DNA from: Candidatus Sericytochromatia bacterium
GTDB taxonomy: Bacteria; Cyanobacteriota; Sericytochromatia; UBA7694; JACMQJ01
Direction: 5' to 3'
Assembly: GCA_046328015.1 (NCBI GenBank)
Contig: JAXLXH010000001.1
Location: 2,546,350 to 2,610,349, forward strand
Length of the DNA stretch: 64,000 nt
The notes under the pieces are model-generated. The model had not been told where the DNA came from and did not search any database. It worked only from the letters and a program-made list of their open reading frames with translations. Position 1 is the first letter of the stretch; the number at the start of each line of letters is the position of its first letter. This document shows, piece after piece, positions 25,447 through 51,319 of this stretch. The translations under genes and the position numbers were made by a program.

Positions 25447-26596
25447 TTATCCTTTCAGAAGCATCTTTTAATCTATCAACACTAGCACATAAAGAAATTC
25501 TTATATATCTTTTTCCATTATTTCCAAAAATAAAACCAGGGGTAATAAAAACATGCTTTTTAGCTAAAATATCTTCTATTAATTCTTCTCCACTGTTTAA
25601 AGCATCTGGAATTTTAGCCCAAAAAAACATACCTTCTTGATTTTCACTATATTTGCAATTTAAAGCATTTAGTATCTCTTTTGCATAAAATTTTCTTTTA
25701 TTATATTCTTCATTTCTTTTGTCATGCCATTCTTCAGAGTTTTTTAAGGCTTCTATTGCTGCATGCTGAACAGGTAAAAACATTCCAGAATCTATATTAC
25801 TTTTGAATTTTAAAATAGTATCAATATATTCTTTTTTTCCAGAAATCCATCCAATTCTCCAACCAGCCATATTATGAGATTTACTAAGAGAATTTAATTC
25901 TAAGCAAACTTCTTTTGCATTAGGTAAAGATAAAATACTAGTAGGTTTGTCAGTATTTAAAACTAAACTATAAGGATTATCATGACATAATAAAAACTTT
26001 TTTTCTAAGGCTAAATTAATTAATTCTTCAAAAACTTTTTTATCAGCTTTTGCTCCTGTAGGCATATTAGGATAGTTCAACCACATAATTTTTACTTTGG
26101 ATAAATCCATAGCTTTTAATTCTTCAATATTTGGTTGCCAATTATTATTTTCGGTTAAATTGTATTTTTTTATAATTCCACCAGCTAAATTAGTTACAGA
26201 AGAATATGTTGGATAAGAAGGATCTGCAATTAATACTTCATCGCCATTATTTAAAAAAGCCATAGAAATATGCAAAATACCTTCTTTAGAACCAATTAAG
26301 GGTAAAAGTTCTGTTTCAGGATTAAGTTCAACTTGATAAGTTTTTTTAGTCCATTCTGCAATAGCTTTTCTAAAATCAGGAATACCTTTATAAGCTTGAT
26401 AACTATGATTTTTAGGATTTTTTGCTGAATTTATTAAGGCATTAACTGTTTCTTCAGATGGAGGCATATCAGGGCTTCCAATACCTAAATTTATAACATC
26501 TAGGCCTTCATCTTGCATTTTTTTTATTTGTGCAAGTTTAGAAACAAAATAATATTCGCTTACATTATCTAATCTTTTGGCTTGTTCAATTATCAT
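25439..26596 (-). CDS. class I/II PLP-dependent aminotransferase (aromatic/aspartate type)
   Basis: 'SLSKSHNMAGWRIGW' PLP-lysine motif. Position between pheA and tyrA. Confidence 0.75.
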   Translation of the reverse strand: MIIEQAKRLDNVSEYYFVSKLAQIKKMQDEGLDVINLGIGSPDMPPSEETVNALINSAKNPKNHSYQAYKGIPDFRKAIAEWTKKTYQVELNPETELLPLIGSKEGILHISMAFLNNGDEVLIADPSYPTYSSVTNLAGGIIKKYNLTENNNWQPNIEELKAMDLSKVKIMWLNYPNMPTGAKADKKVFEELINLALEKKFLLCHDNPYSLVLNTDKPTSILSLPNAKEVCLELNSLSKSHNMAGWRIGWISGKKEYIDTILKFKSNIDSGMFLPVQHAAIEALKNSEEWHDKRNEEYNKRKFYAKEILNALNCKYSENQEGMFFWAKIPDALNSGEELIEDILAKKHVFITPGFIFGNNGKRYIRISLCASVDRLKDASERIIV

Positions 26597-35737: not shown

Positions 35738-36809
<1,072 letters not shown>

Positions 36810-37280
36810 ATTAACCTCAAATTTTTTATGTTTCAAATTTATCTAAAAAATCATTTAACCATAAATCAGCTTCTTCTAATGAATTAAAGTATTCAGATTC
36901 CAAGATTCTTTATCAGATATAGAAGAAAAAATTTAACATAAAAAACTTTTTTTCCGCTATTTCCAAAACTAAAAGCTTTATCACCAACTTTAGCTTCTAA
37001 TATTTCTGTTTTATAAATGTAATCTAAATTATATCTAGTAGTTTCATCTATTCTTAAAAATTTTGCCATAATAAAAACCATAAAAAACATTTTATATCTA
37101 CATTCTAGAATTTTATCATAGTATAGTTTTTAATTATTTTTTTTGGAAAAAATGTTTATAATTTTTTAGTACGATATATCATATTTTAAGTAATAATATG
37201 TTTCTTAAAGAAACCTTAACCTAAAAGGATTATTATAATTTTTACTGGTATAATATATATTTGAAGGGAGGTGATTTAAA

Positions 37281-37355
37281 ATGGGATGGACAACCATAAT
37301 ACAAATGTTTACTGGAATGTCTAGTTTAGTCTCAGTAGAAAAAGAGGAAAATTAA
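37281..37355 (+). CDS. 24-aa small peptide ORF (MGWTTIIQMFTGMSSLVSVEKEEN) behind a perfect Shine-Dalgarno; Fst-like type I toxin candidate
   Basis: 'GGGAGGTGA' 9 nt upstream of the ATG. Hydrophobic core with an acidic tail. A GC hairpin lies 140 nt downstream (37496-37520). Confidence 0.3.
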   Translation: MGWTTIIQMFTGMSSLVSVEKEEN

Positions 37356-37495
37356 TAAACTAGAAAAATTTCATTACAACGGCGTAATGATTCAAAAAAA
37401 ATTCAAAAAATTGCAAAAACTTTTAAGACTAAAAATATAATCAAAAAAATATCAAAATGTTGTATAATTAAATAAGAATTACTTTTTTAGAGAAG

Positions 37496-37520
37496 AAACT
37501 TGTTTCCGCGCTGGAAACTT
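37496..37520. repeat. GC-rich hairpin 'aaacttgtttccgcgctggaaactt' (family E)
   Basis: Isolated GC palindrome in the AT desert. Paralogous to 40488..40510. Confidence 0.6.
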
Positions 37521-39666
37521 AAAACTATATTTATTTGCTAAAAATTAAAAAAATCTACTTAATATTTCTATTATTAATCCAAAAAAAATGATAATATTTA
37601 TAGGAAATAAAGGAAATGAAAAAAATATAATAATAAAAATATCAAACTTATTATAAAAAATTTTATTGAAAATATATTGAATTGTAAAAAAAGAGAGAAC
37701 ATATATAAAGTAAAAAATAATGAAAAAAATATAGTTTCATCTAACATATTAAAAAAACTATATTTTTTAATAAAAAAAGTATTAATATCTATTATTTCTT
37801 CTTTTTCTTATAGAAAAAAATAATTTATTATGTACAATAATAAAAATATAAAAAAATAATAGAATAAATTTATTACTGTTAAACTAAAAGAAAATTTAAA
37901 CAGTTTATCTAAATTTTCTTTTGCTTCAAAAACATTTATTAATAATTCTCTTTTTACTTTATTTATTAAAATAATTATATAAGTTGATATAAAAGGAGAT
38001 AATATTAATCCATAAAAAAGTGTTTCTAAGCTTCTATCTCTAATATTTTTAACCTGATTTCTATTATTTTTTAATTATAACAAAATTTTTTTATAAAATC
38101 TGAAAAGATTTTTCAATGAAAAAACTTTAGTGATCATTATAACTAAAATTAAAAAATAGGTTTTTATTAGTGAATATATTAGTTTAAATAAAAATGTATT
38201 GATAAAGATATTTTTATTCTGAAACTTAATTTAAATTAATTAGTATGCTAATTAAATATGTATAGTTTAAAATTTATAATCCTTATAATAAAAGTTACTT
38301 TTGTTTTTTAAGGAAAATTTATTTTAAAATAATAAGGAAAGTTTTTTTATTTAATATATAGAGTCTTAGAATATAAATAAACTAGAAATATAAGATATAA
38401 AAGTTTGTCTAAAATTTTTTTTACAAAAAAAATTTTAGACAAATAAAGTATTTTTATAAAGTGAGAACGCCTTTCTTTGTAGTTTTTTTGAGAGACAATA
38501 ATGTAAATAAAAAAATGTTGATAATTATAAAACTAATTAGAATAACTATGATTATAGTTTTATTTAATTTTTCAGGATTAAATTATAAAATGTTTTTTAT
38601 AGAGGAAAAATATATAAAGTAAAATTTTCACGAAGAAAAACTTTTGTTTATTTTATAATAAAAATACTAGGTATAAGTTTTTTTGGAATAAAATGAATTT
38701 TTTTATATACAAAAAAATAAATTATCAATAATAGCTATAAGTTTATATAATCAATGTATTAAACTTTCCATTATTGATAATTCATATTATCAATAATAGA
38801 AATATCGTTCAAATATATAATTATAACAGCCTTTTATTTTAGTTTTCTCAAGAAAAATTTTTTATTTTTAAAACAAAATCTATTTGATAAAATAAAATTA
38901 AACAAAAGAAAAATAGTGATTTAAATAACAATATAATTTATTTTTGATTTTTAAAATACTTTTTTCTTATTTAATAAGAATATATTCAGAAATTAAATTA
39001 CTTTCTTATAATTAATTTAAATTAATTAGTAAACTAACTATATTAGGTTTTCATGATTAACTTTTACCTAAAAAAGAGTTATAATAAAATTATTCTAATT
39101 TAAATAATAAAATTGAGTGGAAATTTACCTAAAAAAATAATTTAAATAATATAGAATTAAATGGAAATATTTTCATATTTAATTCTATTGATATAGATTT
39201 ACTAATATATTTTTTGCCTATTAGTAAAAATATTGATTTTTTTCTTCAAGGAAAAAACTAATTCCTAATCAATATGATTTTAAAAGCTTTAAAATATAAA
39301 GGTAAAAATAAATACAAATTTACTCTAAAAATATAAAAATAATACTTATGTTTTTGATATTCATGATGAAAAGAAAAATTTTATTTATAATATAAATGTA
39401 TTTATTAATGATAAATTAGAACTTTCTGAAAAATAAATTATAAAAATAATAATAATCTATCTATAAATTTTGCAGTAAGTTTTTTCAAAAAACAATATTA
39501 ATTTTTTTAGGTATATTAATTTACCTTTTTATTCAAAAATAATAAATGATTTTATAATAATAATATATATACTTATTTTTTATATGATACTCTCACCTTT
39601 TTATATTTTATATAAAGAGCATATTTTAGTAAAAAAAGAATTAGATTTTATTTTAATAAAAATATT

Positions 39667-43255: not shown

Positions 43256-43422
43256 ATTAGATTAGTTTTTAAAATAATCTTAAATTTTCGCTAAAAAACT
43301 ACTAATTATCTACTAATAATTTTTTAAGCTTTATTATGATATAATCCTATATATAAAATATAAATGATTATATTTAGTATTTAAATATTTATAGTGTATA
43401 AAACACTGGAGAATATTATTTT

Positions 43423-44241
43423 ATGAGTAATAAAAAATTAATTTTAAGTATTAGTTTATTTCTGTTTATTTTTTCTTGTTCAAATCCTAATCAATTAAAT
43501 TTACTTCAGACTGATAAAGCCTCATTATTAAAAGTAAACACTACAGATTCTAATAAAAATAACGAAGTTTTAAATAAATTAAAAGATATTTTAGAAAAAA
43601 ATGGGAAAATATCTGATGAAGATATAAATATAACAGTATATAATTCTGTTGTTGCTTCTGTTGTTGGTATTAATACAACAAGTGTAGAAAAAGGTTTTTT
43701 TAGACAAAATGTGGTAAAAGGTTCTGGTTCTGGTTTTATTATAAGTAAAAAGGGACATATTTTAACAAATTACCATGTAGTTAATAATACTACCAAATTA
43801 CAAGTAGTTTTATCTAATAAAAAAGCCTATTCTGCTAAAGTTATAGGTGGAAATGAAATTACTGATGTGGCTGTTATAAAAATAGAAGCTTCTGAAAGTG
43901 AATTAAATTCAGCTAATTTAGGTGATTCTTCAAATATTTCAGTTGGACAAAAAGTTCTAGCTATTGGTAGTCCTTATGGGTTGTTAGGAACTTTAACCAC
44001 AGGAATTATAAGTTCCATTAATAGAAAATTACCTACTGAAGATGGTACTGAACTAGAAGGAATTATCCAAACTGATGCAGCTATTAATCCTGGTAATTCA
44101 GGTGGACCTTTAATTAATTCAAAAGGTGAAATAATTGGAATAAACACAGCTATATTTTCTCCTAATGGTGGAAGTGTGGGTATAGGATTTGCTATTCCTA
44201 TTAATAAGGTAAAAGATTTTCTAAAAACAATATCTTTATAA
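43423..44241 (+). CDS. trypsin-like serine protease lipoprotein (S1C-like, no PDZ)
   Basis: Lipobox 'FIFSCS'. Catalytic His 'LTNYHVV', Asp 'ITDVAVIKI', Ser 'GNSGGPL'. Confidence 0.75.
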   Translation: MSNKKLILSISLFLFIFSCSNPNQLNLLQTDKASLLKVNTTDSNKNNEVLNKLKDILEKNGKISDEDINITVYNSVVASVVGINTTSVEKGFFRQNVVKGSGSGFIISKKGHILTNYHVVNNTTKLQVVLSNKKAYSAKVIGGNEITDVAVIKIEASESELNSANLGDSSNISVGQKVLAIGSPYGLLGTLTTGIISSINRKLPTEDGTELEGIIQTDAAINPGNSGGPLINSKGEIIGINTAIFSPNGGSVGIGFAIPINKVKDFLKTISL

Positions 44242-44244
44242 TAA

Positions 44245-44910
44245 ATGGAAAATATAAAAGAAAATAAAAGTTATTACAATGTTAATAGCTTTTATTTATT
44301 ATTTTTTAAAAGATTTTTTGATATTATATTATCTATTAGTTTAATTACTTTATTTTTACCTTTTTTTATTTTAATTCCAATATGTATAAAATTATCATCA
44401 AAAGGTAATATTTTTTTTAAACAAGAAAGGGTAACTCAAAATAACAAAAAATTTTATATGTATAAATTTAGATCTATGATTGAAAATGCAGAATTAGATA
44501 CAGGTCCCATATTTGCTGATAATAATGATAAAAGATGTACAAAAATAGGTTTAATTTTAAGAAAATTAAGTTTAGATGAAATACCGCAATTTTTTAATGT
44601 TTTAAAAGGAGATATGAGTTTAGTTGGTCCAAGACCAGAAAGACCTTATTATATAGATATTTTTAGTAAAGATATACCTAATTATAACAATAGACATTCA
44701 GTTAAAACAGGTATAACTGGATTATCTCAAATAAAAGGATTAAGGGGTAAAACTTCAATAAAAGAAAGAACTAAATATGATTTAGATTATATAAATAAAA
44801 TAAGCCTTTTTTATGATTTAAATATTATTTTTAATACAATAATTATTATTTTAGTTGAATTTATTAAATTTATTAAAACCATTTTATTGAGTCAAAAAAA
44901 AATTTTATAA
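44245..44910 (+). CDS. small bacterial sugar transferase (PglC/WbaP C-terminal-domain type, phosphoglycosyltransferase)
   Basis: 'DEIPQFFNVLKGDMSLVGPRPERP' signature of the bacterial sugar transferase family. N-terminal re-entrant helix. Confidence 0.8.
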   Translation: MENIKENKSYYNVNSFYLLFFKRFFDIILSISLITLFLPFFILIPICIKLSSKGNIFFKQERVTQNNKKFYMYKFRSMIENAELDTGPIFADNNDKRCTKIGLILRKLSLDEIPQFFNVLKGDMSLVGPRPERPYYIDIFSKDIPNYNNRHSVKTGITGLSQIKGLRGKTSIKERTKYDLDYINKISLFYDLNIIFNTIIIILVEFIKFIKTILLSQKKIL

Positions 44911-44971
44911 CTTATTAATATACTTATATTGTATAATAATAAGTGAAAATATGTTTTTTTAGGTAATTAAA

Positions 44972-46018
44972 GTGAAAGAAACAAAAGAAACTGATGCTTT
45001 ATTTAGTAAGTTTCTAATAAAAAAAGGGTATCTAACAACTGATAAATTAATGAAATGCATTGATTTTCAAACTAATTTAGACAGAAGAAATTGGATTCCT
45101 ATTGGCGATATTTTACTTAGATATAACTACATTACAGAAGAAAAATTAAACCATGCTAAAAATGAATTTAATAAAGAAAATGAAAGTAGTTCAAATCCTA
45201 ATAATAATTTTAGAGGAACTATTAATTCTAAGGAACAAGATGCTGAAATAAAAAATGCTTTAAATAAAATTCAAAAAACTTCTAATGATTTTAGAACCAC
45301 TAATTTGTCAAATAAAAATGCAAATGAAATAAAAAGTGCTATAAATAATTTACCTCAAACTAATAAACCAAATTTACCAGTACAAACTCCACCTACTGTA
45401 AACAAAGTAAACTTAGTTAATCCTCAACAAAATCAATTAGTTAAACCAATTTTACCTAATACAAATATACAACCTAATCAAAATTTAGGTCGAATTACAT
45501 TAGGTAATTCACAACAAAATGATACTAAAAATATTCAAGAAGAAGTTAAAAAATATGCTACACCAAATAAAACAGTTCCACCACCCCCTCCTGTAGCTAT
45601 GCAAAATGCTACAAATAACCAAGTTATTAGAAAACCTATTGGAGAAATTTTAATAGAAAAAGGAATTATTACTAGATACCAATTAAGTAATGCGTTACAA
45701 TATCAATCTTCTTTAAATCCAACTAATTATAAACCCATTGGTGAAGTTATGATAGAAATGGGTTTTCTAAGTAAAACTCAATTAGATGATGCTTTAAAAG
45801 AACAACCAGAAAAAACAGGTAACGCAATTGGTGAAATATTAAAAAAATTAGGATTTATTAATGAAGCTCAACTAGCTGCTGTTTTATCTCAACAACATTC
45901 TGTTAGTGGTAAACCTATATTAATTGGAGAATTACTTGTTCAACATGGGTTTATTAGTCCAGAACAATTAGATCAAGCATTAAAAGTCCAAAAATCTATA
46001 AACAATAAGGCTATATGA
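44972..46018 (+). CDS. protein with 4-5 tandem MshEN/T2SSE_N-like repeats (putative c-di-GMP-binding modules) and Pro/Asn/Gln-rich linker
   Basis: Repeats of 'PIGE(I/V)L(I/V)E.G.I...QL..AL..Q' at five positions, matching the MshEN c-di-GMP-binding motif. GTG start. The stop overlaps the dnaE ATG. Confidence 0.65.
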   Translation: MKETKETDALFSKFLIKKGYLTTDKLMKCIDFQTNLDRRNWIPIGDILLRYNYITEEKLNHAKNEFNKENESSSNPNNNFRGTINSKEQDAEIKNALNKIQKTSNDFRTTNLSNKNANEIKSAINNLPQTNKPNLPVQTPPTVNKVNLVNPQQNQLVKPILPNTNIQPNQNLGRITLGNSQQNDTKNIQEEVKKYATPNKTVPPPPPVAMQNATNNQVIRKPIGEILIEKGIITRYQLSNALQYQSSLNPTNYKPIGEVMIEMGFLSKTQLDDALKEQPEKTGNAIGEILKKLGFINEAQLAAVLSQQHSVSGKPILIGELLVQHGFISPEQLDQALKVQKSINNKAI

Positions 46019-49000
46019 ACTACGATTTTGTCCATTGTAACTTACATTCAGAGTACTCACTTTTATCAGCTTCAAGTAAAGTTAAAGATATAGTAAAAAC
46101 CGCTAAAAATGCTGGTATGAGTGCTATCGCCATAACAGATCATAATGTTATGTATGGAGCTATAGAATTTTATAAAGCTGCTAAAGAAGCTCAAATAAAA
46201 CCTATTATAGGTTATGAAGCTTATTTAGCACCTAAAGGCATGTCTGATAAAACCACAAAAGAATATTATAATTTAGTTTTATTAGCTAAAAGCTACGAAG
46301 GTTACCAAAATTTAACTCAAATATTATCAGCTAGTTATACTGATGGATTTTATTATGTACCTAGAATTGATATGGAACTTTTATCCAAACATCATAAAGA
46401 TGTTATTGCTTTATCAGCTTGTTCTAATGGAGAAATTTTTTCATCTTTATTAAGAGGTAATTATGAAAAAGCGTTAAATATAGCTTCTAATTATAAAGAT
46501 ATTTTTGGAGATAACTATTATTTAGAAATAGAAGATCATGGAATGCAATCTCAAAAAAAAGTAAACCCCATGATTTTAAAACTTGGTAAAGAACTTGGTA
46601 TAAAAGTTGTAGCTACTAATGATTGTCATTATACAAAAAAAGATGATGCTCTAGCTTGGGAAGTTTTAACTTGTATAAAAAATGGTGTAAAACTAGATGA
46701 TAATAAGAATCCTTTAGAAGGTGAAGAACATTATATAAAAACGCCTCAAGAAATGTTTGGTGTTTTTCATGAAATACCTGAAGTTTTAAAAACTAGTTTA
46801 GAAATAGCTGAAAAATGTCATGTAATAATACCTATGGGAAAATCTATTTTACCTCATTTCCCTCTACCTCCTAACCATACAGCTGAAAGTTATTTACAAC
46901 AAACTTCATTAGAAGGTTTAAAAAGAAGATATAAAGAAATAACACCTGAAATAAATAAAAGGTTTTTTTATGAAATAGAAATAATTAATAAAATGGGTTT
47001 TGCTGCATATTTTTTAATAGTTTGGGATTATATTAATTATGCTAGAACAAAAAACATTCAAGTTGGACCAGGTAGAGGATCAGCTGCTGGTTCTATAGTA
47101 GCTTTTGCTTTGGGAATTACAGACTTAGATCCTTTACCATACAATTTACTTTTTGAAAGATTTCTTAACCCTGAAAGAATATCAATGCCCGATGTTGATA
47201 CCGATTTTTGTATTGATCGTAGAGGTGAAGTTATTCAGTATGTTACTGAAAAATATGGAGCTAAACAAGTAAGTCAAATTGTTACATTAGGAACTTTAGG
47301 GGCTAAACAAGTAATACGAGATGTTTCTAAAGTTATGGGTTATGCTGTTTCAGATTCTGAAAGATTATCAAAAATGTTACCTAAAGGGTTAAATGTTAAA
47401 TTAAAAGATGCTTTAGAAGATGGTCAAGAATTAAAAAAAGAAGTTGATAATAACCCTAAAACAAAAGAAATAGTAGATTTAGCTTTAAAATTAGAAGGTC
47501 TTTCTAGACATTCAAGTATTCATGCTGCTGGGGTTGTTATTTCTAAAGATCCTTTAGATACGATAGTTCCTTTAGAAAAAGGAAAAGAAGGAGGTTTAGT
47601 TGCCCAATTTCAGATGAGCGATTTAGATAAATTAGGTCTTTTAAAAATGGACTTTTTAGGTCTAAGAAATTTAACTATGATTGCAAGCTCTTTGGAAATC
47701 ATAAAAGAAACTAGAGGATTTGATTTAGATATAAATAATGTTCCCTTTGATGATAAAAAAACTTACGATTTATTAGAATCTGGTCAAACTATTGGGGTAT
47801 TCCAATTGGAATCACAAGGTATGCAAAAGCTTGTATCTCAATTACAACCAAACCTTTTTGAAGAAATTATCGCTCTTATAGCACTTTATCGTCCTGGTCC
47901 TTTGGGCAGTGGAATGGTTGAGGATTTTGTTGAAAGAAAACATGGCAGACAAGAAATAAAATATCCTCATCCTAGTATAGAAAATGTTTTAAAAGATACT
48001 TATGGTCTTATAATCTATCAAGAACAGATAATGCAAATATCTCAAATAATTGCTGGTTATACATTAGGGCAAGCTGATATTTTAAGAAAAGCTATGGGTA
48101 AAAAGCAACTTGATGAAATGATGAAGCAAAGAGAAACATTTTTATCCGGTTCTTCTAAAAATGGCATAGCTACAGAATTAGCAAATAGTCTTTTTGACAC
48201 TATGGAAAAATTTGCTGAATATGGTTTTAATAAATCTCATAGTGCTGCTTATGCTGTTGTTACTTACAGAACAGCTTATTTAAAAGCTAATTATCCTGTT
48301 GAATATATGGCTGCTTTAATATCTAGTGTTATGAACAACCCAGATAAAGTACCTCTTTATACTTCTGAAGCAAGAAGAATGGGAATTGAAATTTTACCAC
48401 CAGATGTAAATTCTAGTGATTTAGGTTTTAAGGTATCAAAAAATTCTATAAGATTTGGTTTGAAAGCTATAAAAGGAGTAGGTGAAAATGTTATTGAATC
48501 TATTATAGAAGTTCGAAAGAAAAATGGTAATTATAAGTCTTTATATGATTTTTGTAAAAATGTTAAAGGTGGCATAAATAAAAGAGGTTTGGAATCTCTT
48601 ATAAAAGGTGGTGCTTTTGATTCTATTAATAAAAATAGAAAACAATTATTAGAAGGTTTAAGCCTTACTTATGAAACAGCTGTAAAAAAGCAAAAAGAAG
48701 AAGCTTCAGGACAAACCTCTTTATTTGGAATGACTCAAGAAGATGGAACTAATTTTGATGAAGCTCCAGAATTACCTAATGTAGAACCCTATCATGAAGA
48801 AGAAAAATTAAAAATAGAAAAAGAAGTATTAGGTTTATTTGTTTCTGGACATCCTTTGGATAAATGTAGAGGACAAATAGAAAAATTTTGTACTCAAAAA
48901 GTATCAGATTTAGCTGAATTAGCAGATGGAGCTAATGTTACTATAGGTGGAATGATAAATGGTTATAGAACCATACTTACTAAAAAAATGGATACTATGG

Positions 49001-49404
49001 CTGTTTTTACTTTAGAAGATCTTACTGGTTCTATAGAAGTTGTTGTTTATCCTGATACTTGGAATAAATTTAATCAGTTTTTGGCTAATGATGAAAAAAT
49101 AATGATAACAGGTAAATTATCTTCGAAAGAAGATGAATTAAAAATATTTTTATCTTCTACAAATAGTTTGAATAAAATACAATATTTAGAAATAATGTTA
49201 GATGAATTAATTACTCCTATGAAATTAGTATCTATGAGAGCAGTACTTCAAGAAAGTAATGGAGATATTCCTGTTATTATTAATTACCCTTCTCATAATA
49301 TAGAAATTATTACTAGTAAAGATTTTTGGATTAAACCTACTGTTGAAATATTAAACAAATTAAAAGAAGAACTTGGTGAAGACAAGGTTTTACTAAAAAC
49401 TTAA
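46015..49404 (+). CDS. dnaE: DNA polymerase III alpha subunit
   Basis: PHP domain (CNLHSEYS..AITDHN), palm 'PDVDTDF', fingers, OB-fold. 1129 aa. Confidence 0.95.
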   Translation: MNYDFVHCNLHSEYSLLSASSKVKDIVKTAKNAGMSAIAITDHNVMYGAIEFYKAAKEAQIKPIIGYEAYLAPKGMSDKTTKEYYNLVLLAKSYEGYQNLTQILSASYTDGFYYVPRIDMELLSKHHKDVIALSACSNGEIFSSLLRGNYEKALNIASNYKDIFGDNYYLEIEDHGMQSQKKVNPMILKLGKELGIKVVATNDCHYTKKDDALAWEVLTCIKNGVKLDDNKNPLEGEEHYIKTPQEMFGVFHEIPEVLKTSLEIAEKCHVIIPMGKSILPHFPLPPNHTAESYLQQTSLEGLKRRYKEITPEINKRFFYEIEIINKMGFAAYFLIVWDYINYARTKNIQVGPGRGSAAGSIVAFALGITDLDPLPYNLLFERFLNPERISMPDVDTDFCIDRRGEVIQYVTEKYGAKQVSQIVTLGTLGAKQVIRDVSKVMGYAVSDSERLSKMLPKGLNVKLKDALEDGQELKKEVDNNPKTKEIVDLALKLEGLSRHSSIHAAGVVISKDPLDTIVPLEKGKEGGLVAQFQMSDLDKLGLLKMDFLGLRNLTMIASSLEIIKETRGFDLDINNVPFDDKKTYDLLESGQTIGVFQLESQGMQKLVSQLQPNLFEEIIALIALYRPGPLGSGMVEDFVERKHGRQEIKYPHPSIENVLKDTYGLIIYQEQIMQISQIIAGYTLGQADILRKAMGKKQLDEMMKQRETFLSGSSKNGIATELANSLFDTMEKFAEYGFNKSHSAAYAVVTYRTAYLKANYPVEYMAALISSVMNNPDKVPLYTSEARRMGIEILPPDVNSSDLGFKVSKNSIRFGLKAIKGVGENVIESIIEVRKKNGNYKSLYDFCKNVKGGINKRGLESLIKGGAFDSINKNRKQLLEGLSLTYETAVKKQKEEASGQTSLFGMTQEDGTNFDEAPELPNVEPYHEEEKLKIEKEVLGLFVSGHPLDKCRGQIEKFCTQKVSDLAELADGANVTIGGMINGYRTILTKKMDTMAVFTLEDLTGSIEVVVYPDTWNKFNQFLANDEKIMITGKLSSKEDELKIFLSSTNSLNKIQYLEIMLDELITPMKLVSMRAVLQESNGDIPVIINYPSHNIEIITSKDFWIKPTVEILNKLKEELGEDKVLLKT

Positions 49405-49476
49405 TTATAGGCTATTGTTTTTTATCTTTTATCATCTTATAATTGTGTAAACATAGAGTTTTTATAAGGAGTATTT

Positions 49477-49821
49477 ATGGCAAACGTACCACAAAGACCA
49501 CAACCAGCTCAACCACCTCAAGCTAAACCTCAAGCTCAGCCAGCAGGAGGCGGTGGTAATTCACAAGGTTTAACACCAGATGATTTACTTGCTAGAGACT
49601 TTAATACTTTAGCTAAACCTGCTAATTTATTCAGATTTAGAATAGACAAAGATAATGTTGTTATCGATTTTGGTTATTTACCTCCTATTATTCAAAACGA
49701 AATTGATAGATTAACAAAAGATGTTGTTAACGTTCATACAAGAATTGCTATTCAATTTGAATTAGCTAAACAAATGGCTGAAAAATTAGTTGAAACTATA
49801 AAAGAAGCTGAAGAAATGTAA
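49477..49821 (+). CDS. hypothetical protein with Pro/Gln-rich N-terminus
   Basis: SD 'aaggag'. ORF ends at the terminator at 49822-49856. Confidence 0.45.
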   Translation: MANVPQRPQPAQPPQAKPQAQPAGGGGNSQGLTPDDLLARDFNTLAKPANLFRFRIDKDNVVIDFGYLPPIIQNEIDRLTKDVVNVHTRIAIQFELAKQMAEKLVETIKEAEEM

Positions 49822-49856
49822 AAAAAAAAGATGCTTATACAGCATCTTTTTTTTAA
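49822..49856. terminator. bidirectional rho-independent terminator between convergent genes
   Basis: 'aaaaaaaaagatgcttatacagcatctttttttt' is a hairpin aagatgct/agcatctt flanked by A9 and T8. Confidence 0.75.
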
Positions 49857-50182
49857 ATATTTATTTCTCCCAAAACTTCTAACTTATAGTTAGGAGGAAC
49901 TTCCATATAAGATATAACTTGAATTCTTGGATATTTTCTTTCTATTAATCTTCTAAAATATAATCTTATATCTGGTTTACAAATAATAGGAACACCTTTT
50001 AAACCAACAGATAATAATATTTCTTCTTTTTCATCTATACTTTTATATAAATTTACGCTTTCAACTCCACTTATCTCTATTCTAGTTCCATTATCATCTC
50101 TAATAATTTTATTTCTTAATAAATCTTCTAAACTTTGAGAAAGAGTTAAAACTTTTAGTGGAATTCTATTATCTTCAGACAT
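49853..50182 (-). CDS. hypothetical protein (109 aa)
   Basis: ORF with a coding-like composition. Ends at the terminator. No family recognised. Confidence 0.45.
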   Translation of the reverse strand: MSEDNRIPLKVLTLSQSLEDLLRNKIIRDDNGTRIEISGVESVNLYKSIDEKEEILLSVGLKGVPIICKPDIRLYFRRLIERKYPRIQVISYMEVPPNYKLEVLGEINI

Positions 50183-50257
50183 TTTATAAAATCTATAATA
50201 TAAATATTTTAAAGTATTTTATTATACATTAAATAAAAAAAATTAGATACTAAAAAA

Positions 50258-51319
50258 CTATAAAACATGACACCAATTAAAAATATCCTCTTTTTCTCCA
50301 TATTGAATATCAGTAATCTCTTTATAGATTTTTTTTGCTAATTCACCATTTTCATTATTATTTATAATTATTTCTTTATCTTGGTGTCTTATTTTTCCAA
50401 TAGGAGAAATTATAGCTGCTGTACCAGAACCAAAAGCATCTTTTAATTTACCTTTAGCTGAAGCTTCTAAAACTTCATCTATAGATATTCTTCTTTCATT
50501 AACTTTTATACCCATGTTTTTTGCTAAATTTATAACAGAATCTCTAGTTACACCATCTAATATAGTGCCATCTAATGGAGGCGTAATTAATTCATCATCT
50601 ATAAAAAAGAAAATATTAGAAGTTCCTATTTCATCTATGTATTTCCTTTCTATTCCATCTAACCAAATAACTTGAGTATAACCTTGTTCTTTTGCTAACA
50701 TAGAAGGATATAAACTTGCTGCATAATTAGCAGGAGTTTTAGCCTCGCCTAAACCACCTTTTACTGCTCTTACATAATCACCTGAAGTAATTAAACTAAT
50801 AGGGTTTAAACCTCCTTTATAGTATGCACCTACAGGGCAAGTTATTACCATATATTTAAAAGTATCAGAAACTTTTAGACCCAAAAACTCTTCAGTTGCA
50901 AAAGTAAAAGGTCTTATATATAAAGAATTACCTCTTTTTTTAGGTATCCATTCCAAATCAACTTCTAATAAAGTTTCTAATGATTTTATAAATACATCAT
51001 AAGATACTTCTGGAATGCAAATTCTTTTATGAGAAGTATTTAATCTTTTATGATGTTTTTCAGGTCTGAAAAGTCTATGTTTACCATCAACACCTGTAAA
51101 AGCTTTCATTCCTTCAAAAACAGCTTGTCCATAATGTAAAGTAGCTAAAGATGGATAAAAACTTATTTTTTCAAAAGGTATTATGGAAGGATTACCCCAA
51201 ACGTTATTTTCATAATCCATTGAAACCATATGATCTGAAAAAATATGCCCAAAGCCTAAATTATCAAAATCTACTGTTTTTAAAATACTATTATTTGTTT
51301 TTCTAATATCTATTTGCAT
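50258..51319 (-). CDS. ilvE: branched-chain amino acid aminotransferase
   Basis: 'FSDHMV...YGQAVFEGMKAF' BCAT class IV signature. Confidence 0.9.
   Translation of the reverse strand: MQIDIRKTNNSILKTVDFDNLGFGHIFSDHMVSMDYENNVWGNPSIIPFEKISFYPSLATLHYGQAVFEGMKAFTGVDGKHRLFRPEKHHKRLNTSHKRICIPEVSYDVFIKSLETLLEVDLEWIPKKRGNSLYIRPFTFATEEFLGLKVSDTFKYMVITCPVGAYYKGGLNPISLITSGDYVRAVKGGLGEAKTPANYAASLYPSMLAKEQGYTQVIWLDGIERKYIDEIGTSNIFFFIDDELITPPLDGTILDGVTRDSVINLAKNMGIKVNERRISIDEVLEASAKGKLKDAFGSGTAAIISPIGKIRHQDKEIIINNNENGELAKKIYKEITDIQYGEKEDIFNWCHVL

Follow-up and report, generated by a model that had tools for sequence, protein, structure and literature searches.

The gene directly upstream of dnaE in the window analysed here, a stretch of 64,000 nucleotides (64 kb) from Candidatus Sericytochromatia bacterium (assembly GCA_046328015.1, contig JAXLXH010000001.1), encodes a 348-residue protein with six repeats that, judged by their sequence, are MshE-type motifs for cyclic di-GMP (c-di-GMP). 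We consider it moderately probable that this protein is a stand-alone, multi-site candidate c-di-GMP receptor or adaptor consisting of the MshEN_N subdomain only, without an ATPase or other output domain, and that the overlap of its open reading frame (ORF) with dnaE is incidental. Binding of c-di-GMP by the window protein is a well-founded prediction. The protein belongs to a small, rare and conserved family of non-photosynthetic cyanobacteria, comprising Sericytochromatia, Melainabacteria and Blackallbacteria.

The canonical MshEN_N unit is made up of two 24-residue copies of the pattern RLGxx(L/V/I)(L/V/I)xxG(L/V/I)(L/V/I)xxxxLxxxLxxQ joined by a 5-residue spacer, with contacts at Arg/Lys1, Leu2, Gly3, Leu17, Leu21 and Gln24. 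In MshE, Gly3, Leu17, Leu21 and Gln24 contact c-di-GMP (PMC5013675), and the isolated MshEN_N subdomain binds the ligand with a dissociation constant (KD) of 0.35 µM (Wang et al. 2016, PMC5013675). A motif scan of the window protein found six 24-residue copies (Table 1), one more than counted in the initial annotation of this DNA, with spacers of 9 residues between motifs 1 and 2 and of 9, 6 and 8 residues between motifs 3 to 6. The Pro/Asn/Gln-rich linkers which that annotation placed between the copies come down to one long linker (residues 67-221), the other spacers being only 6-9 residues long. The assignment to MshEN itself holds: the NCBIfam model NF053729 ('c-di-GMP_motif, MshE-related', 53 residues) matches with 138.9 bits against a cutoff of 38 (E 3.2e-41) in four stretches, the best of which, residues 255-308, spans profile positions 1-53 of 53. 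Weaker secondary NCBIfam matches are to the glycosyltransferase NfrB, the kinase EpsG and PilB. As had been stated, an ATPase domain is lacking; neither ATPase domains nor PF05157 (MshEN, including the C-terminal subdomain) matched the 348-residue protein at E<=1 in Pfam. The PF05157 model works in the same setting, as the weakest homolog, P0046, matches it. Two other Pfam candidates, FumaraseC_C (42.8 bits) and DUF4388 (35.3 bits), were discarded: no single stretch passes, each match covers about 23 residues of one helix-turn-helix, and the scores are artefacts of repeat summing. Among all other ORFs of the window, none contains more than one loose match to the motif.

The structural predictions agree with this assignment. 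An AlphaFold2 model of the full-length protein consists of two confident helical modules (residues 11-70 and 221-348) and a disordered linker. The block-mean predicted local distance difference test (pLDDT) score is 90-95 over residues 11-70 and 77-96 across the C-terminal block, exceeding 90 for most of both modules, and falls below 50 for most of residues 79-217. Modelled separately, residues 215-348 (mean pLDDT 78) form eight helices arranged as four short-helix/turn/long-helix units. In a phmmer search against the sequences of the PDB, the best match was Thermus PilF (6f8l, 1.6e-14, in three stretches). Vibrio MshE in complex with c-di-GMP (5htl) matched with 1.8e-6; both matches fall in the C-terminal block. 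Foldseek against the PDB likewise ranked MshE with c-di-GMP (5htl) first, followed by PilF GSPII-B, mostly in c-di-GMP-bound form, and apo GSPII-A. These top matches have probabilities of 0.92-1.00 and local superpositions of 1.7-2.3 Å over 56-58 columns at 30-34 % identity; on c-di-GMP-bound PilF GSPII-B, the model of residues 215-348 superposes with 1.7-1.8 Å over 57-58 columns. The helix-turn-helix units of the AlphaFold2 models and the Foldseek matches conform to one four-helix bundle per motif pair in the predicted fold.

Conservation in relatives shows that the ORF is a real gene. Its sequence is identical to that of a hypothetical protein of a Candidatus Sericytochromatia metagenome-assembled genome, and 45 further homologs were found, the named ones from Sericytochromatia, 'Cyanobacteriota', Blackallbacteria and Melainabacteria. 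A spurious ORF is ruled out by this conservation and by the family alignment, which also agrees with the GTG start: 6-13 residues precede the first motif in all members. The 348-residue plus-strand reading frame of the initial annotation is thus confirmed with a GTG start, although it ends at 46018, 12 nt before the 46030 given there. The six-motif family set comprises P0001-P0017. Its 16 full-length members (226-348 residues; 36-52 % identity to the window protein in alignment A1) share a common layout of an N-terminal motif pair, a variable linker and four C-terminal motifs. The linker is gapped and poorly conserved in the alignment, varies in length and contains recurrent polyproline tracts. 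A profile built from the 16 members was run against 1.84 billion representative proteins (50 %-identity clusters) and retrieved 8946 proteins at E<=0.001, which represent the general MshEN_N superfamily, many with three to six matched stretches; only 26 matches reached E<=1e-30, and about five representative clusters match end to end.

Across the family, G3, L17, L21 and Q24 are nearly invariant: in each motif, 11-16 of the 16 sequences retain them, and the count is below 14 at just two of the motif positions. Orthologous motif copies have similarities of up to 0.74 (0.67-0.74 for motifs 3, 5 and 6), compared with 0.21-0.54 for paralogous copies. Since orthologous copies are more alike than paralogous ones, the array is ancient, with constraint acting on each copy separately; a recent internal duplication is ruled out by the same comparison. 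In the window protein, motifs 3-6 all retain G3, L17, L21 and Q24. The N-terminal pair carries S12 in place of Gly at position 3 of motif 1, K63 in place of Leu at position 21 of motif 2 and F66 in place of Gln at position 24 of motif 2, each found in the window protein only among the 16 family members. These substitutions suggest a lineage-specific loss of one binding site, and the N-terminal module of the window protein has probably degenerated, with the four C-terminal motifs intact.

We propose the following hypothetical mode of action, in which (i) consecutive motif pairs would fold as four-helix bundles, each clamping a single c-di-GMP monomer in extended form, in the manner of MshE and PilF; (ii) the C-terminal block would offer up to two sites, through pairing of motifs 3+4 and 5+6, or through the near-canonical pair 4+5 with its 6-residue spacer; (iii) the N-terminal pair, in which binding is probably lost or weakened (S12, K63, F66), may serve as an interaction or output end; and (iv) ligand binding would order the C-terminal block and thereby alter the engagement of a partner that the conserved context does not allow us to name. 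Synthesis of c-di-GMP in the lineage is indicated by a gene for a stand-alone GGDEF protein of 179 residues. It is found in the loci of the three closest full-length orthologs, four genes upstream of the MshEN gene (L007 3259-3798, L010 4331-4870 and L011 639-1178), and its product may be a local cyclase for the receptor.

Several observations weigh against this proposal. The position-1 Arg or Lys, which stacks on guanine in MshE, is missing from all motifs; motifs 1-6 have L, P, P, P, A and L there. The relaxed published pattern permits Pro at this position (PMC5013675), but only two of the six motifs satisfy that pattern. The spacers of 6-9 residues differ from the canonical 5, motifs 4+5 with 6 residues coming nearest, and PilF GSPII-A, a close MshEN homolog, fails to bind through small deviations (PMC12002112). 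The Foldseek E-values are weak (0.03-2), because the domain has only about 57 residues. Within the 64-kb window, motifs of diguanylate cyclases and phosphodiesterases were not found, and at the family loci no conserved neighbour points to a target.

These points invite the interpretation that the repeats are MshEN-like yet no longer bind a nucleotide, the protein being a pure protein-binding scaffold like the non-binding N-domains of XpsE and PilF GSPII-A. Such a scaffold is favoured by the missing position-1 Arg in all six motifs, by the non-canonical spacers, by the three ligand-contact residues that the window protein alone has exchanged in its N-terminal pair, and by documented non-binding homologs (PMC5013675; PMC12002112). 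We nevertheless regard it as unlikely. Gln24, which contacts the ribose-phosphate backbone in MshE and PilF and for which a structural role is in our judgement not obvious, is retained in each motif by 12-16 of the 16 sequences; Gly3 is kept in 14-16 of 16, and in the window protein the four C-terminal motifs are intact. A position-1 Pro and a long spacer, moreover, are also seen in a reported binder. In the third phmmer stretch of PilF (residues 303-385), the motifs are 7 residues apart and the second one has Pro at position 1. The stretch resembles motifs 3+4 of the window protein, with which it shares the long spacer 'Q-x-LP-x-KP(I/L)GE' in the phmmer alignment. It lies within the range of GSPII-C, which is reported to bind c-di-GMP with a KD of 12 nM (PMC12002112).

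A candidate c-di-GMP receptor of this composition can be compared with several characterised systems. With Vibrio cholerae MshE (MshEN, PDB 5HTL; PMC5013675), the window protein shares the tandem 24-residue motif, the succession of short helix, Gly turn and long helix, and G3, L17, L21 and Q24. It differs from MshE in consisting of the MshEN_N subdomain only, without MshEN_C and without the ATPase of type II secretion systems and type IV pili, and in having six motifs rather than two, no position-1 Arg and longer spacers. Like Thermus thermophilus PilF with GSPII-A, -B and -C (PDB 6F8L, 8PDK, 9G1W; PMC12002112), it combines several MshEN-type modules in one polypeptide. The PilF modules, in contrast, each have a C-terminal subdomain and feed into an ATPase, and the non-binding GSPII-A, one of the three, is a warning against taking homology by itself as proof of binding. 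A portable c-di-GMP sensor without a secretion ATPase is also found in MshEN_N-only and (MshEN_N)2 proteins and in MshEN fusions to REC, HD-GYP, kinase and glycosyltransferase domains, among many fusion architectures (Wang et al. 2016, PMC5013675), and in NfrB (PMC8669469). Tandem proteins made of MshEN only are thus already known. What sets the present, uncharacterised family apart is its layout of a motif pair, a long disordered Pro-rich linker and a four-motif block, which occurs in full length in only about five 50 %-identity clusters.

A different partner is suggested by the gene 61 bp upstream, which encodes a small phosphoglycosyl transferase (PF02397). The window protein could be the detached regulatory half of a c-di-GMP-controlled phosphoglycosyl transferase, binding the product of 44245..44910 and, at rising c-di-GMP, activating the initial step in the synthesis of an exported polysaccharide. 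In two fusion proteins, P0043 and P0044, four MshEN motifs come after a transferase domain of this same kind. P0043 belongs to a typical Wzz/Wzy/ABC-transporter polysaccharide cluster, and the window transferase is 42 % identical to the transferase half of P0043. Control of a glycosyltransferase by c-di-GMP via MshEN is established for NfrB (PMC8669469), EpsW-EpsZ is an established case of a small partner protein controlling an initiating transferase (PMC12802240), and no terminator-like site separates the transferase gene from the MshEN ORF. Against this stands the finding that the adjacency occurs in the window only, no other family locus having a PF02397 gene nearby. No polysaccharide cluster surrounds the window transferase, whose neighbours are a carboxyltransferase and a trypsin-like protease, and the 42 % identity may mean mere shared membership of the transferase family (an uncalibrated judgement). 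In the fused MshEN domains, furthermore, the spacers have the canonical 5 residues, and both the N-terminal pair and the linker are missing. The fusions are single polypeptides with a different MshEN architecture, whereas the window has two genes, of which one encodes a transferase domain of the same kind. We hold regulation of the upstream transferase to be improbable.

The fusions are of interest in their own right. Located at L172 8001-9080 and L173 5196-6275, they may represent initiating transferases under direct control by c-di-GMP; among the 12 matches listed in our literature search, no work joining MshEN with phosphoglycosyl transferases was found.

The initial annotation had emphasised the position before dnaE and suggested a c-di-GMP-responsive scaffold for DnaE. 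The overlap is real: the TGA of the ORF and the ATG of dnaE form an ATGA, with AAGG 4 nt 5' of the dnaE ATG. The dnaE start is sound, as the N-terminus matches that of an 80 % identical relative DnaE residue for residue and the PHP domain begins at residue 7. The link was tested both ways, by examining the family loci for dnaE and by fetching 80 dnaE loci from metagenomes and examining them for MshEN genes. By tblastn, neither the window DnaE nor the sugar transferase was found in the 91 MshEN loci (0/91), and none of the relatives' 80 dnaE loci contains an MshEN-family or PF02397 gene (0/80). The suggestion of a scaffold for DnaE thus fails on the conservation of gene order.

The individual loci point the same way. 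About ten distinct family loci have unrelated neighbours, never dnaE. The loci of the closest full-length relatives (P0003-P0005) contain, in order, a GGDEF gene, a NuoB-like gene on the opposite strand, rpiB, an ORF of 251 residues and the MshEN gene, followed by DUF2071 in two of the three. None of the genes of the block from GGDEF to the 251-residue ORF is present in the window, nor did 13 neighbour proteins from the loci of four relatives (L001, L007, L013, L092) have a homolog anywhere in it. The MshEN gene of P0002 is convergent with murD; other family neighbours are lptF/G, ferredoxin together with a GT2 glycosyltransferase, or unknown genes. On the side of dnaE, the closest locus, L092 (DnaE 80 % identical), has an ORF of 292 residues, membrane-protein-like, 123 bp upstream of dnaE and a different downstream gene, and the next locus (65 % identical) has upstream an ORF of 184 residues that seems cyclophilin-like; neither upstream gene is related to the MshEN ORF. 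L092 and the contig of P0002 very probably come from one organism, because they share the sample and the coverage label and have similar GC contents (27.0 % and 26.7 %); this organism would keep dnaE and the family ortholog apart, on separate contigs.

Within the window, 11 of 34 same-strand neighbour pairs lie within 18 bp of each other or overlap, and a second 4-base overlap is found at 26593-26596. Tight packing is common here, and the ATGA overlap is therefore no special mark. Co-transcription of the MshEN ORF with dnaE is likely, and translation of dnaE by ribosomes finishing the upstream ORF (translational coupling) is possible. The overlap itself is a lineage-specific result of compact gene packing in a genome of 24.5 % GC and not evidence of a function in the replisome. 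That a c-di-GMP-responsive scaffold acts with DnaE or tunes its synthesis, linking the second-messenger level to replication, appears very unlikely to us. The ATGA overlap and the lack of a stronger plus-strand terminator-like site than the hairpin after the 114-residue ORF (Table 1) speak for it, and an internal dnaE promoter is neither shown nor excluded by the promoter scan. On the other side, no relative examined has this gene order, not even the one whose DnaE is 80 % identical, tight packing is frequent in the window, and literature joining c-di-GMP with DnaE or the replisome was not found among the 10 listed of 156 full-text search matches. Even less credence can be given to the variant that the receptor was captured before dnaE in this one lineage, so that polymerase synthesis, or activity by direct contact, follows c-di-GMP status; if true, this would be a second-messenger input into replication elongation without a described precedent.

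The reading as a stand-alone candidate receptor opens no new link between c-di-GMP and DNA replication. Its value lies first in annotation: a 'hypothetical protein' family of non-photosynthetic cyanobacteria becomes a set of candidate c-di-GMP receptors, and the automatic Pfam labels on the family (FumaraseC_C, DUF4388/PatA_N) can be recognised as artefacts of summed weak repeat matches. The family also lends itself to clean tests of the number of ligands bound per six-motif MshEN_N array and of whether Pro, Ala or Leu is tolerated at position 1. Of greater use as a lead may be the sugar transferase–MshEN fusions, candidate enzymes through which c-di-GMP would govern polysaccharide synthesis at its first committed step.

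Further multi-MshEN genes were observed among the relatives. In Blackallbacteria and high-GC Sericytochromatia, the family members have a longer paralog as their neighbour: two tandem multi-MshEN genes, the first encoding 442-495 and the second 285-295 residues, occur in L004 (4533-6888), L014 (7971-10330) and L176 (3005-5439). The pair adjoins an Rce1-like protease in all three loci, across which the neighbourhood is conserved, and a leucyl aminopeptidase lies beside it in L014, L176 and L005 (the same place as L004).

Table 1. Features of the MshEN gene and its surroundings (positions within the window).
Feature	Position	Strand	Basis
Small phosphoglycosyl (sugar) transferase, PF02397, 221 aa	44245..44910	+	Pfam E 6.9e-67
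Stand-alone protein gene, six MshEN_N-type motifs, 348 aa, GTG start	44972..46018	+	ORF call, NF053729, homologs
N-terminal motif pair, residues 10-33 and 43-66, 9-aa spacer	44999..45169	+	Motif scan
Pro/Asn/Gln-rich low-complexity linker, residues 67-221 (~155 aa), predicted disordered	45170..45634	+	AlphaFold2, alignment
C-terminal four-motif block, residues 222-245, 255-278, 285-308 and 317-340	45635..45991	+	Motif scan, phmmer
ATGA stop/start overlap: ORF TGA 46016-46018, dnaE ATG 46015-46017	46015..46018	+	Sequence
dnaE, 1129 aa; PHP, Pol III alpha, finger, HhH and OB domains	46015..49404	+	Pfam; 80 % identical to same-length DnaE in L092
ORF after dnaE, 114 aa, no Pfam match	49477..49821	+	ORF call
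Bidirectional terminator-like hairpin, 14-bp stem between T runs	49822..49854	.	Terminator scan

As regards the transcriptional organisation, the terminator scan identified the hairpin after the 114-residue ORF as the strongest plus-strand terminator-like site downstream of 43300, the sole other one being a weak 8-bp stem within dnaE. Because this strongest hairpin follows the 114-residue ORF, the protease, the transferase, the MshEN gene, dnaE and the 114-residue ORF may form one mixed operon. The 114-residue ORF, whose product has an N-terminus rich in Pro, Gln and Ala and whose place is taken in L092 by an ORF of 557 residues, is probably the last gene of the dnaE transcription unit. A promoter scan of 43300-50300 gave 40 sites, compared with 47.2 ± 7.6 in shuffled sequences, and says nothing on a promoter for dnaE or the ORF. 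At 44932-44937, 35 nt from the GTG start, there is a perfect TATAAT, which was not counted; it has no -35 partner, and at 24.5 % GC such hexamers would be expected frequently. Rfam and tRNA scans of the window gave no matches.

Two further features of the window lie outside this region or at its edge. Positions 36119-39666 form an extremely AT-rich non-coding stretch of about 3.5 kb without an ORF longer than 65 residues, with no Rfam match at E<=0.1, no tRNA and one tiny tandem repeat; its GC content is 12-16 % over 37400-39600, compared with 24.5 % for the whole window. On the minus strand, a stand-alone ORF of 109 residues at 49853-50182 aligns with the FHIPEP/FlhA export-gate family over its final ~90 positions alone (565-656 of 657); it represents a free C-terminal subdomain of FlhA or else the remnant of a gene.

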